Below, one piece after another: positions 28,392 through 32,436 of a stretch of DNA of 32,436 bases. The notes beneath the pieces were generated by a model, which was not told where the DNA came from, did not search any database, and saw only the letters and a list, made by a program, of their open reading frames with translations. Origin of the DNA: Chiloscyllium plagiosum. Its lineage: Eukaryota. The stretch lies in assembly GCF_004010195.1 (NCBI RefSeq), contig NC_057719.1:2658784-2691219 (forward strand). The letters are read 5' to 3'. The translations under genes were made by a program, and so were the position numbers. Numbering within the stretch: position 1 is the first letter of the stretch; every line of letters starts with the position of its first letter.

Positions 28392-29141
28392 CTAGCCTGC
28401 ACTAACTATGTGGTCCTCTCATGAGACCACGCTGACAAGCCCACAGCTATAATTAATGTTGAAGGTATCCCTATTTCCTTTCTGATTGACACTGGCATGA
28501 TTCACTCCATGCTGGCTTTGGTTCAAAGACATACATTTCCCCCCTCTGGTAAGCCTCAGACTGTGTAACATTTATTGGATTAATTAAGGGACAGGAGGGT
28601 TCTGCCTTCCTTGTAGAGATGCTCCGGAAACTCTGGCATCAATCGGGTCTCGTGGCCCCCCATGTGACTCTCACTGTTCATGAGGATTACAGTGTCAAAT
28701 CCCTAAGATATTTAGCCGCGGCTTGCACGAGCAAGCAGATCCTTTCTACACTAGGGGACAAACCTTCCCTCAGGGTTCCTTTGGAATATGGTCCGCAGCC
28801 TGTGTGACTGGCATACTGGCCCGCCATGTCACCAATAAGCGTCTGACCTCAGAGGTTCCTCCGGACTTATGGGCGGTGTCCAAACACGAAATGGGATTCA
28901 CTAATGTCCTCCTGAGCCATATTAAAGTAAAACCTGGTTTGCCCTTGCCCTCGATTCCGCAAGGGTAAGGGCTGAGGAAGGATTCTCTGCCAGCATTCAG
29001 TCTTTCCTTCGATCGGGAATCTTAGTTCCATGCTGTCACATTGTAGCACCCCAATCATCCCTGTTCCAAAAGGCGGATGACCGTCCAAATGGCACTTGAT
29101 CCAAGACCTCTGACAATCGTGTAACCTTTGTATCCCATTGT

Positions 29142-29641
29142 NNNNNNNNNNNNNNNNNNNNNNNNNNNNNNNNNNNNNNNNNNNNNNNNNNNNNNNNNNN
29201 NNNNNNNNNNNNNNNNNNNNNNNNNNNNNNNNNNNNNNNNNNNNNNNNNNNNNNNNNNNNNNNNNNNNNNNNNNNNNNNNNNNNNNNNNNNNNNNNNNNN
29301 NNNNNNNNNNNNNNNNNNNNNNNNNNNNNNNNNNNNNNNNNNNNNNNNNNNNNNNNNNNNNNNNNNNNNNNNNNNNNNNNNNNNNNNNNNNNNNNNNNNN
29401 NNNNNNNNNNNNNNNNNNNNNNNNNNNNNNNNNNNNNNNNNNNNNNNNNNNNNNNNNNNNNNNNNNNNNNNNNNNNNNNNNNNNNNNNNNNNNNNNNNNN
29501 NNNNNNNNNNNNNNNNNNNNNNNNNNNNNNNNNNNNNNNNNNNNNNNNNNNNNNNNNNNNNNNNNNNNNNNNNNNNNNNNNNNNNNNNNNNNNNNNNNNN
29601 NNNNNNNNNNNNNNNNNNNNNNNNNNNNNNNNNNNNNNNNN
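29142..29641. other. Assembly gap (500 N, probably a placeholder length)
   Basis: Run of N. RT motifs on either side are in the expected order. Confidence 0.99.
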
Positions 29642-29660: not shown

Positions 29661-29873
29661 GGATCCACTATCATTCAATACGTGAATGGTTTACTCCTTG
29701 CTAGCCCTGATTTGGTTAATAACCAGCAGGGCACTGTTTACTTCCTCACACAGCATCTGCAGACCTCACTTTCTCCTCGAAGGATCCACTATCATTCAAT
29801 ATGTGAATGGTTTACTCCTTGCTAGCCCTGATTTGGTTAATAACCAGCAGGGCACTGTTTACTTCCTCACACA
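29661..29873 (+). repeat. 92-bp direct duplication of the RT active-site region separated by a 29-bp PLE terminus
   Basis: Copies 29661-29752 and 29782-29873 differ at one C/T. Spacer GCATCTGCAGACCTCACTTTCTCCTCGAA matches the PLE end seen at ~2594-2617 and, inverted, at 21852-21872. Confidence 0.9.
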
Positions 29874-30210
29874 TCTCTATTCATGGGGATATGGTCCCCC
29901 CCCTCTAAGGCCAATGGCAAGTTAAATCTTTGGGTGTTCTGATCAGTGCGACTTACTCAGGAATGCATTCATCCCATCTTGCCAACCCCATCCCCACCTC
30001 ACCCAAATGGATGAGGGCCTTTTTGGGACTGGTGAAATTTTGCAGGCAGTGGTGTCCAAACATTACAACACATACTAAAGTGCTTACTCCATATTTCTCT
30101 CTGACTGCCCCCCCCCCCACCCCCAAAAGTTTCAGCTGTTCATTCTGCAGGTGCCCTAGCGCTGTGTGGGTAGCTAAGGTGTCTTTGAGGACAGAAAATT
30201 CGCCGAAAGG

Positions 30211-30254
30211 ATCGCTTCTCGGCCTTTTGGCTAAGATCAAGTGTCTTCTTATCA
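30211..30254 (+). pseudogene. U2 snRNA 5' fragment (nt 1-34 exact, then TTCTTATCA matching U2 nt 43-51)
   Basis: ATCGCTTCTCGGCCTTTTGGCTAAGATCAAGTGT is identical to the vertebrate U2 5' end. No Sm site or 3' stem-loops follow. Confidence 0.95.
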
Positions 30255-30413
30255 AGACAGGGGTCGAGTTGCGAGTCATCAGAGCTAGTGGAGATCATCG
30301 CTGGATCGTGATTGGACGTTGGAGGATCATTTGGTTGTGCTGACCTGTTATTGGTGGATCTTCATGCTGGCTTCGGCCTAACGCCAATTCAGGGACCAGC
30401 CAACCTCAGAGCT

Positions 30414-31873
30414 ATGGCCTCAATAGCTGCCCGCACCCTGGGCCAGGGGATTCGAAACACCGTCTGGGCGTCTGTCAAGAAGGTGGAAGAGCGTACACCA
30501 GTTGATCGGACGGTGTGCGTCAAGAAGGTGCTGTTCGAGTGCTGTGGGTTCGCCGCAGCAGATGTGTACTGCCTGCAGGATTTCCCTGGGGCAGGCTACT
30601 TTGACGTCACCTTCAGGAGCGTGAAGCAATGCGAGCAACTCCTGAAGGTCTTCAAGGAAAAGGAAGGGGAGCCGCTGTTCTCCATCTTGTCGGCGGTCCC
30701 CTTGTGTGTGCTTCCTGCACAGAGGAGTCGGGTTGTTACGATCTACATGTACAACCCCTACGTGCCAGCAACTGATGTCCTGACCTTCCCTGGAAGATAT
30801 GTGCAGGTTGAGGGACAAAGCACCGATGTGGTTGACCCTTTCGGGATCTGGACCAGCAAACGACAGGTCAAGGTAACCCTGAGGGTTGACGCCAGCGGGA
30901 ATATCCTCCACTCATCCTCCAGCTTTGCTATCAGAGGGAGCAGAGGGTCCCTGACTTATGCAGGGCAGCCGAAAGTGTGCCGAACCTGTGGGAGGTCAGG
31001 CCACATGGCGGCGGACTGCAAGGTCACGATCTGTCGGAACTGCAAAAAGGAGGGGCACCCGACCAAAGAATGCAAGGAGGAAAAGAACTGCAATCTGTGT
31101 GGGGAGGCGGGCCACATGTACAGGGGCTGCCCAAGACGAGGGGCCGCCACCTACGCGCAGATGGCCGGAGGTGGGCCACAAAAGGAGGGCAAGGCACCGC
31201 AAACCGGCAAGGGATAGGTGTCTGGGGGCACGCAACAGGAAGGACAGGCTGGAGCAGAGCAGATGACAGCTACTGGAGAGGTACAGCTACCGAGCGAAGC
31301 TCCGACAGGACAGGCGGAGGAGGAGGAGATGGAGAAGGGAAACAAGGAGGCAGAGGAATGGACCATGGTGCAAAGCAGGAGGAGGAAAACCAACCGGCCA
31401 CCAAGACCTCCCAGAAAAAGGGGAAAAGGCAGCTGCATGGGGAAGACATGGAAAGCTGTTTGGAAGGTGAGGACGGGCGTAAGGAGGGTCGTCACCAAAA
31501 GAAGAGGCAGAGCGCTGCGAGGAGAAAGGACAGCAGCAACTGCCAACCAAGGGACGAACCTCCTGAGGAAATGGGAAACCACCACCCCCCCACCAGGTGA
31601 AAGCCAGGAGGGCCCCACCGCCATACAGCTCCAGGCCACTGGGAGCAGTGACCCTCTGACAGAGCCCCGCTGTCAGATATAGAAACAGACAACGTGGATC
31701 CTGGCTGCGGCCCGATGACACCGAAGCGGGCAAATGGACCGAGTGGGGAGCTGGACAGCTACCTCAGCCCTGCGAGGATCCAGCAATTCGTGTTCTGCCA
31801 GGGGATGCAGACAGCTACTCCAGAGGGGCAGAACCAGCGACAATCGGACGTGGGTAACTCTACAACCTGTTAA
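30414..31873 (+). pseudogene. Tx1 ORF1 (ZCCHC3-like N-terminal domain, three CCHC knuckles, low-complexity tail); premature TAG at 31215-31217 and a downstream frameshift
   Basis: MASIAAR...GIRNTV...YFDVTF...PFGIWTSKRQVKV...YAGQPKV; CRTCGRSGHMAADC, CRNCKKEGHPTKEC, CNLCGEAGHMYRGC; EWTMVQSRRRK; C-terminal YLSPARIQQF ending at TAA 31871-31873. Confidence 0.88.
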
Positions 31874-31877
31874 AAAA

Positions 31878-32436
31878 ATGGGGTTAAAAATTGCAATTAT
31901 TAATGTGCGCAGCATAAAATCTGCTGCGCGATGTGTTTCAACACTGGCCTTTCTGGTCAACGTGAAAGCCGATGTCCTCTTCCCGCAGGATACTGCACCT
32001 CAGCAGTTACAGGAGATGGTCGAGCTTGTGGGCCCATGGGCCGTCAGTGTGGTCAGGGGGCAACGATAACCACTCCTCAGGCCTGGGTATCCTGTTGCGG
32101 GGAGGCAACTTCACTATCTCCGAGGTTAAGGAGGTGGTGGGCGGGCGCCTCCTCGTAGCTGATGTGACATACAGAAACGCTCCCGTGAGACAAATCAACG
32201 TGTACGCCCCAGTGGGTAAGAGTGAACGGTTGGCCGTCCTGCAGCAGCTTCCACTGTTGCTGGCTACGTCCAGGCCGGTCATTCTGGCCGGAGACTTCAA
32301 CTGCATCATTGATGCAGATGGACGATCCAGCTGGGGGGACAGTAAACTGGACGCCACGTCCAGAGCCCTGATGGACACGGTCAAAGATGCCAAGCTGCGC
32401 GACGTCTTCAGCACCCCTGCAGACGGAGCGCAGCGT
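31878..32436 (+). pseudogene. Tx1 ORF2 N-terminal APE endonuclease (frameshift near 31990)
   Basis: MGLKIAIINVRSIK...ADVLFPQ; GLGILLRG; GRLLVADV; INVYAP; VILAGDFNCII; LRDVF. Confidence 0.9.

Follow-up and report, generated by a model that had tools for sequence, protein, structure and literature searches.

The stretch of Chiloscyllium plagiosum DNA analyzed here (the window, 32,436 nt) contains a Tx1-type LINE whose coding region is preceded by a perfect piece of U2 snRNA sequence. This arrangement raises the questions of where the element begins, whether the U2 piece is a property of this one copy or of its whole family, and how such a piece came to be there. A sequence-only reading of the window had placed U2 nt 1-34 at 30211-30244, and comparison within the same genome agreed exactly: 30211..30244 (plus strand) is identical to nt 1-34 of L043, the best U2 gene of this genome (190.6 bits against Rfam U2), which served as the U2 reference. 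In a search of 501 nt, Rfam U2 (RF00004) matched 30211-30280 with 36.3 bits (E = 8.9e-6), and a search of the whole window at the gathering threshold returned no match. Since the score falls short of the gathering cutoff of 46 bits and the gathering search was empty, we regard 30211-30244 as a U2 fragment rather than a gene. The other attributes of a U2 snRNA gene were likewise not found in the window, as only nt 1-34 align and a promoter-like upstream region is absent. The fragment forms the first bases of the LINE, as the matches elsewhere in the genome revealed.

Comparison of positions 30100-30420 with the window's own 3.56-Gb assembly yielded 601 first-look candidates, of which the best 40 were scored. 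All 39 of the other scored matches begin at query positions 105-119 (window 30204-30218), at most 7 nt from U2 nt 1 at query position 112. The upstream flanks of 29 other copies were dissimilar to one another and to the 70 nt that precede U2 in the window. The first bases were exactly ATCGC in 20 of 30 copies, and the other ten varied only in their first 1-4 nt; variable first bases are common at LINE 5' junctions. As the matches begin there, the upstream flanks are unrelated and the 5' ends are shared, the element begins with U2 nt 1, although the loci read were the best-scoring ones and the uniformity of their 5' ends is in part a selection effect. The leader had been proposed to start at a TCATTC at 30141, with U2 at about +70. 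That start has to be abandoned, since no other copy has the 70 nt and U2 nt 1 comes first.

The head of the family consists of U2 nt 1-34 joined to nt 40-52 and accounts for 47 nt at the start of the 205-nt leader. It was present on all 30 of the 5' ends read. A genome-wide search with an exact pattern spanning the junction, in which 0-8 bases were allowed between the two parts, found 96 heads on many chromosomes (reversed-pattern control, 0). Ninety-four of these had the 5-nt gap and two had an intact U2 1-52. These counts give good support to the proposal that the U2 piece belongs to the 5' end of this family as a fixed feature, and the element thus has the feature of snRNA-headed Tx1 LINEs, a family 5' terminus derived from U1 or U2 snRNA. 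The two copies with intact heads (L073 and L074) have unrelated flanks and lack a U2 promoter. Their existence indicates that the head was once U2 1-52 and that the deletion arose within the LINE lineage.

In the window copy, the U2 nt 40-52 part is represented by a remnant at 30245..30255 (plus strand; 11 of 13 nt in the alignment of 30 5' ends), which has an extra copy-specific 2-nt deletion and one G>A change. The sequence had been read as resuming inside U2 after nt 34, and this it does, the family as a whole having nt 40-52 and lacking only nt 35-39. The remainder of the leader, or 5' UTR, occupies 30256..30413 (plus strand) and is ~99% common to all 30 aligned copies. The ATG of ORF1 follows at 30414, 170 nt past U2 nt 34, which is the spacing given in the earlier reading.

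The first 267 codons of ORF1 (30414..31217, plus strand), located from the ORF list and Pfam domains, run to an in-frame TAG at 31215, and the reading frame extends to ~31682 with more lesions. Matches were obtained to RBD_ZCCHC3_1st (1.5e-15), RBD_ZCCHC3_2nd (3.6e-19) and zf-CCHC (5.6e-9). A family copy, L033, is without the stop at 31215. ORF2 begins with an apurinic-type endonuclease at 31878..32436 (plus strand), where it leaves the window; Pfam Exo_endo_phos was matched on 31972-32436 (1.3e-5), and there is a frameshift within this endonuclease in the window copy. Both ORFs therefore carry lesions, as had been noted. An RT segment with its active-site motif could be read in L033. The order of an apurinic/apyrimidinic-type endonuclease followed by an RT, a feature of Keno elements, is present in this family, based on Exo_endo_phos in the window, the RT of L033, and PF03372, PF00078 and PF13966 in relatives. 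Overall, the family is ~5.64 kb long and poly(A)-tailed, with an ORF1 that has ZCCHC3-type RNA-binding domains and CCHC knuckles and an ORF2 with endonuclease, RT and zf-RVT. The window copy ends in a short A run at C10:2694635, which is 3,416 nt past the end of the window (window-equivalent 35852), and is 5,642 nt long. In two protein searches the closest proteins were unnamed or uncharacterized, with 62% identity to a ray protein and 47-49% to salamander and frog proteins.

The insertion target of the window copy is degenerate ERV pol (RT palm/thumb) at 29686..30113 (plus strand), recognized from its match to MLV RT and from ERV-family matches in the genome. Within the translated segment 29930-30139, positions 29978-30097 match MLV RT residues 266-302 (E = 0.0023, PDB sequence search), in agreement with the RT-thumb similarity reported upstream of the element, and matches from 29930 to no further than 30113 were found at 24 other ERV-family places of the genome. 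The ORF at 29686-29925 contains what we take to be an RT active-site-like motif. Beyond the poly(A), the 3' flank continues in frame as retroviral RT, matching MLV RT residues 324-409 (E ~1e-13, PDB sequence search). A Pfam search of the two ERV flank translations gave no match. Resumed pol past the 3' end was one of the checks suggested for this locus, and its presence, together with MLV RT similarity on both sides, places the LINE inside ERV pol. The assembly around the ERV RT region has a ~500-nt run of N at window 29140-29640 and, just past it, a ~53-nt direct repeat (29700-29752 and 29821-29873).

The ~70 nt between the recognizable RT and U2 had been described as neither pol nor U2. This description did not hold, as both parts of the interval recur in the 3' flank. 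Segment A (30095..30144, no strand assigned) is the upstream copy of a direct target duplication, with 41/50 identity, in direct orientation, to the 46 nt that immediately follow the poly(A). Segment B (30145..30207, no strand assigned) is an inverted duplicate of the ERV pol target, with 57/63 identity in reverse orientation to C10:2694682-2694744. Its source is 47-109 nt beyond the 3' end of the LINE, inside the RT frame of the 3' flank. The order of A then B seen in that flank is the native one, as it was found in another ERV copy (C16). Three nucleotides, AGG (30208..30210, no strand assigned), fill the 5' junction and match neither segment B nor other family copies. Judged from these alignments, the window copy has a target duplication of ~109 nt (30095-30210 and C10:2694636-2694744) with its LINE-proximal 63 nt inverted. 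The target duplication looked for at this copy is therefore present, but in a rearranged form. The inverted 63-nt junction may be an assembly artefact.

Members of the family are dispersed outside U2 genes. In a rough first look, candidates for the 3' end numbered 691, and the similarity of this count to that for the 5' end suggests many full-length copies. Target duplications of 7-17 bp were clear in 8 of the 14 copies with both ends read (3/7 and 5/7), and the remaining 6 were ambiguous or, in the window copy, rearranged. U2 from nt 39 was found in none of the 27 main-family 3' flanks, that of the window copy included. None of 30 heads is preceded by a U2-promoter-like region; genuine U2 genes are alike upstream between -200 and -40, with a common motif near -63 in three of them. 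Patterns for the 5' junction of a headed copy inside U2, at nt 52 and at nt 37 of the U2 variant, gave 0 matches each. These target duplications and unrelated flanks uphold the view that the lineage now inserts elsewhere than in U2 genes.

The 5' flanks (30) and 3' flanks (27) revealed no other common target, the elements' own poly(A) ends apart. An insertion preference of the Mariner-N4_AMi type was not seen either, as judged from the dissimilarity of the flanks. TC follows the A run directly, as it does at the U2 site, in 6 of 26 distinct 3' flanks, where ~2 would be expected by a rough estimate; we considered a residual preference for the U2 site on this basis and rejected it, as this excess is too weak for such a claim. 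The elements do at times land next to each other. In 4 of 30 cases the head directly follows the poly(A) of an older copy, and in two pairs (L015 with L087, and L021 with L089) the new target duplication begins exactly at the boundary between the older poly(A) and its flank, which implies that one nick site was used twice. Two small contigs, L082 and L083, have the same LINE 3' end and an identical 70-nt flank, and because of that flank they probably represent one locus assembled twice.

Elements that do occupy U2 were found among relatives of the family. Keno elements are U2 snRNA gene-specific LINEs of the Tx1 clade (Kojima and Fujiwara 2004, as cited in the text of PMC4494074, PMC4640811 and PMC6136364). 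According to the text of PMC4640811, the U2 sequence downstream of Utopia begins at nt 39 and the Keno 3' flank is the same, and PMC6136364 cites the same insertion site. The Keno arrangement of an insertion in U2 with a 3' flank from nt 39 was not found in the main family and occurs only in its relatives L067 and L068. At L067, an element tail and poly(A) are followed by U2 from nt 39, and L068 has two tail/U2 junctions with U2 from nt 42. The connection drawn earlier between this LINE and the Keno site is strengthened by these loci. The elements at L067 and L068 have 78-87% identity to the main family across their last 0.3-1.3 kb, which is why we consider them relatives and not members. Such tail/U2 junctions are rare in this genome: among 37 rows matching the tail of a relative, 3 (the query included) extend at least 30 nt into U2, and 2 more extend ~15 nt.

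A sibling family has a different head, consisting of a U2 variant to nt 38, with 74 exact dispersed matches (control, 0). Its 5' region (L072:1652-2300) comprises the U2-variant head, ~80 nt resembling ORF1, and a leader that is homologous to that of the main family from ~nt 50. A head that ends at nt 38, the nick site, has the boundary expected from read-through of a U2 promoter across a Keno insertion.

We consider that the window copy is most likely one damaged member of a young, dispersed family of Keno derivatives, in which a co-transcribed piece of the target became fixed as the head and strict targeting was lost. We would give this explanation a probability of roughly 60%. The lineage would have descended from a Keno element that targeted U2 genes. 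A master copy in a U2 gene would have been transcribed from the U2 promoter, so that its RNA began at U2 +1 and included the upstream part of the target, and this chimeric RNA may then have founded a lineage that did not depend on U2 for its insertion. Loss of the 5 nt at the former nick site would have come later, within the LINE lineage. Since the copies share their exact 5' end and not their flanks, present-day transcription probably starts at U2 nt 1 under signals internal to the element. The family-wide head, the non-U2 flanks, the target duplications, the two intact heads, the relatives at the Keno site, the nt 38 boundary of the sibling head and the ERV pol on both sides of the window copy all speak for this explanation. 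Some observations count against it. No headed copy of the family was found in U2, either among the 30 heads or with the two junction patterns. The main head ends at nt 52 and the nick site is at 38|39, which requires a hypothetical 14-bp stagger with nt 39-52 duplicated. Template-switch products also occur in this genome and favor a different origin.

In that alternative, the RT, on reaching the 5' end of the RNA of a headless ancestor, jumped to U2 snRNA at ~nt 52 and copied it to nt 1, and the product became a master. Several structures are in line with such an event. At L072, a second U2 piece (nt 32-167) precedes the U2 head that the sibling element already had. Eight of this genome's 30 best U2 loci (L044, L048, L051, L052, L058, L059, L063 and L069) hold a near-full-length U2 whose 3' side runs, at a point that varies among them, into the 5' end of a SINE. 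These fusions resemble chimeric U2-SINE retrocopies or a family of the SINEU kind; the text of Kojima 2015 (PMC4494074) reports SINEU from crocodilians only. Some of the fusions retain 7-15 nt of the U2 gene 3' trailer. Compound 5' regions also occur: at four loci (C39:14870099/14870529, which is L030; C21:25828261/25828695; C13:21429928/21430354; and C26:40720902/40721322) a sibling 5' unit, made up of head, leader and the first ~165 nt of ORF1, is situated 420-434 nt ahead of a main-family head. Their structure suggests that units were added in series and copied together. Template switching is, from the look of these junctions, plainly active in this genome. The nt 52 boundary of the main head, which differs from the Keno nick site, also fits a jump of the RT, and Kojima 2015 (PMC4494074), in its text, favors template switching for the heads of SINEU and Tx1-Mar, with recurrent 5' additions of U1 and U2. 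The sibling head is harder to accommodate, as it stops at the Keno/Utopia nick site in all 74 exact copies, which would be unexpected if the jump were random, and the Keno site in U2 still harbors relatives. On balance, we see a template-switch origin as possible, and tentatively less probable than derivation from a Keno element by co-transcription.

A separate matter is whether the leader, or the U2 head within it, has a function that accounts for its retention. Among the 30 copies, 0.85% of cells differed from the majority base in the head, 0.78% in the rest of the leader and 8.55% in the first 200 nt of ORF1. Of the 43 head sites, none had a difference shared by three or more copies; elsewhere in the leader such differences affected 2 of 158 sites, as against 39 of 200 in ORF1. 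The loci had been selected by leader similarity, which biases this comparison of leader and ORF1. Because the leader is uniform and ORF1 is diverse, distinct ORF1 subfamilies have one leader in common. Two loci illustrate the divergence of ORF1: L039 and L040 have 89% identity to the main-family query over the first 658 nt and no match beyond it at E 1e-30, and by this pattern they belong to a diverged ORF1 subfamily. A common leader across subfamilies could result from swapping of the 5' module or from constraint. It is conceivable, if unlikely, that the 205-nt leader is a portable start module, swapped or shared among ORF1 subfamilies, that fixes the start at U2 nt 1, and that the 5-nt deletion gave immunity to the Keno endonuclease and allowed a burst of copies. 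If that were true, a single genome would record how a target-specific LINE got away from its target, first internalizing it and then disarming it.

Still less probable, in our judgment, is that the U2 head itself is kept as an RNA module (by pairing with U6, as a host-factor mimic, as a stabilizing 5' structure, or as a determinant of the start site) and that selection favored loss of nt 35-39, which takes away the nick site and so protects the element from its own kind. The excess of deleted over intact heads (94 to 2), the position of the deletion over the 38|39 site described in the text of PMC4640811, and the scarcity of shared differences in head and leader across ORF1 subfamilies could be read in its favor. 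Against this, a single lucky master could explain the 94:2 ratio, and the choice of loci by leader similarity weighs on the conservation argument. The head has neither an Sm site nor the branch-point-recognition bases, and its conservation is no better than that of the rest of the leader. The predicted fold of the leader was no more stable than that of shuffled sequences (z = -0.14). No insertion into an intact head was found with a pattern of poly(A), U2 40-52 and leader (0 matches), only two intact heads being known. The U2 piece of the window copy had been singled out earlier because it is unmutated although both ORFs have lesions; with a head that is no better kept than its surroundings and an ordinary fold, it needs no special explanation.

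An ordinary Keno insertion into a U2 gene or pseudogene, with the 70 nt as U2 promoter flank and U2 nt 39 onward after the 3' end, has next to no chance of being correct and is refuted for the window copy: such insertions do exist at L067 and L068, in elements whose 3' tail is related, but here the 3' flank is ERV pol and the upstream 70 nt are ERV-derived and do not resemble the sequence upstream of genuine U2 genes.

The family resembles Keno in its architecture of an apurinic-type endonuclease and RT, and through the related copies of this genome that sit in U2 with a 3' flank from nt 39 or 42 and the sibling head that ends at nt 38. It differs from Keno in that the main family is outside U2 (0/27 3' flanks and 0/30 promoters). 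Closer parallels have been described in crocodilians. The text of Kojima 2015 (PMC4494074) describes Tx1-Mar LINEs that co-cluster with Keno, a U2 head on Tx1-11_Crp and U1 heads on three other families, and SINEU SINEs with U1 or U2 heads, the heads having been added recurrently. Tx1-11_Crp and the other Tx1-Mar families share with the shark family a Tx1-type LINE body, a 5' end derived from U2 or U1, a location outside snRNA genes, recurrent 5' snRNA additions and poly(A) tails. The crocodilian families are old, with 85-87% identity to consensus in that text, whereas the shark family is young, with <1% of leader cells off the majority in the 30 best copies. They also prefer one Mariner transposon, whereas the shark family is dispersed, with no common target in its 30 5' and 27 3' flanks. 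Further differences are the cartilaginous-fish host, the copy number and the deletion over the nick site.

SINEU elements, as described in the text of PMC4494074, are similar in having an snRNA head, internal head deletions, sequential additions and Tx1-type mobilization, but they are short and non-coding, whereas the element described here is a 5.6-kb coding LINE. Co-transcription of R2 with its 28S rDNA target, discussed in the text of PMC4494074, is comparable to the origin proposed here for the head, a transcript that begins at a host promoter and includes upstream target sequence. In R2, however, a ribozyme removes the upstream rRNA and the element stays target-specific, whereas here the piece of target was kept and the target was left. 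U6/L1 and other snRNA-LINE chimeras (Buzdin 2002 and Garcia-Perez 2007, as reported in the text of PMC4494074) likewise have an snRNA at the 5' end, a LINE at the 3' end and one target duplication. They are, in that account, one-off dead copies with variable junctions, whereas this family has the same fixed junction in at least 96 copies.

Whether a family of this kind had been described was left open in the sequence-only reading. Tx1 LINEs with U1 and U2 heads are, however, present in the text of Kojima 2015 (PMC4494074). In the full-text literature searched, we found no description of the family in cartilaginous fishes. The core idea of the sequence-only reading was right, and its anatomy of the 5' end and its claim of novelty were wrong. 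snRNA-headed Tx1 LINEs are already known from crocodilians, and the cartilaginous-fish family is a further, well-documented example.

The text of Kojima 2015 (PMC4494074) did not settle by which route LINEs and SINEs acquire U1 and U2 heads or how elements of this kind are transcribed; it favored template switching. In the genome studied here, young copies of several related forms occur side by side: the nt 38 head, the nt 52 head in intact and deleted form, relatives inserted in U2, and template-switch products. These related young forms in one genome are therefore good material for deciding between target-gene co-transcription and template switching, and the same genome is suited to a test of promoter activity in the leader. 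For annotation, the finding means that dispersed matches to U2 nt 1-34 in this genome are best taken as the 5' ends of LINEs and not as U2 pseudogenes.
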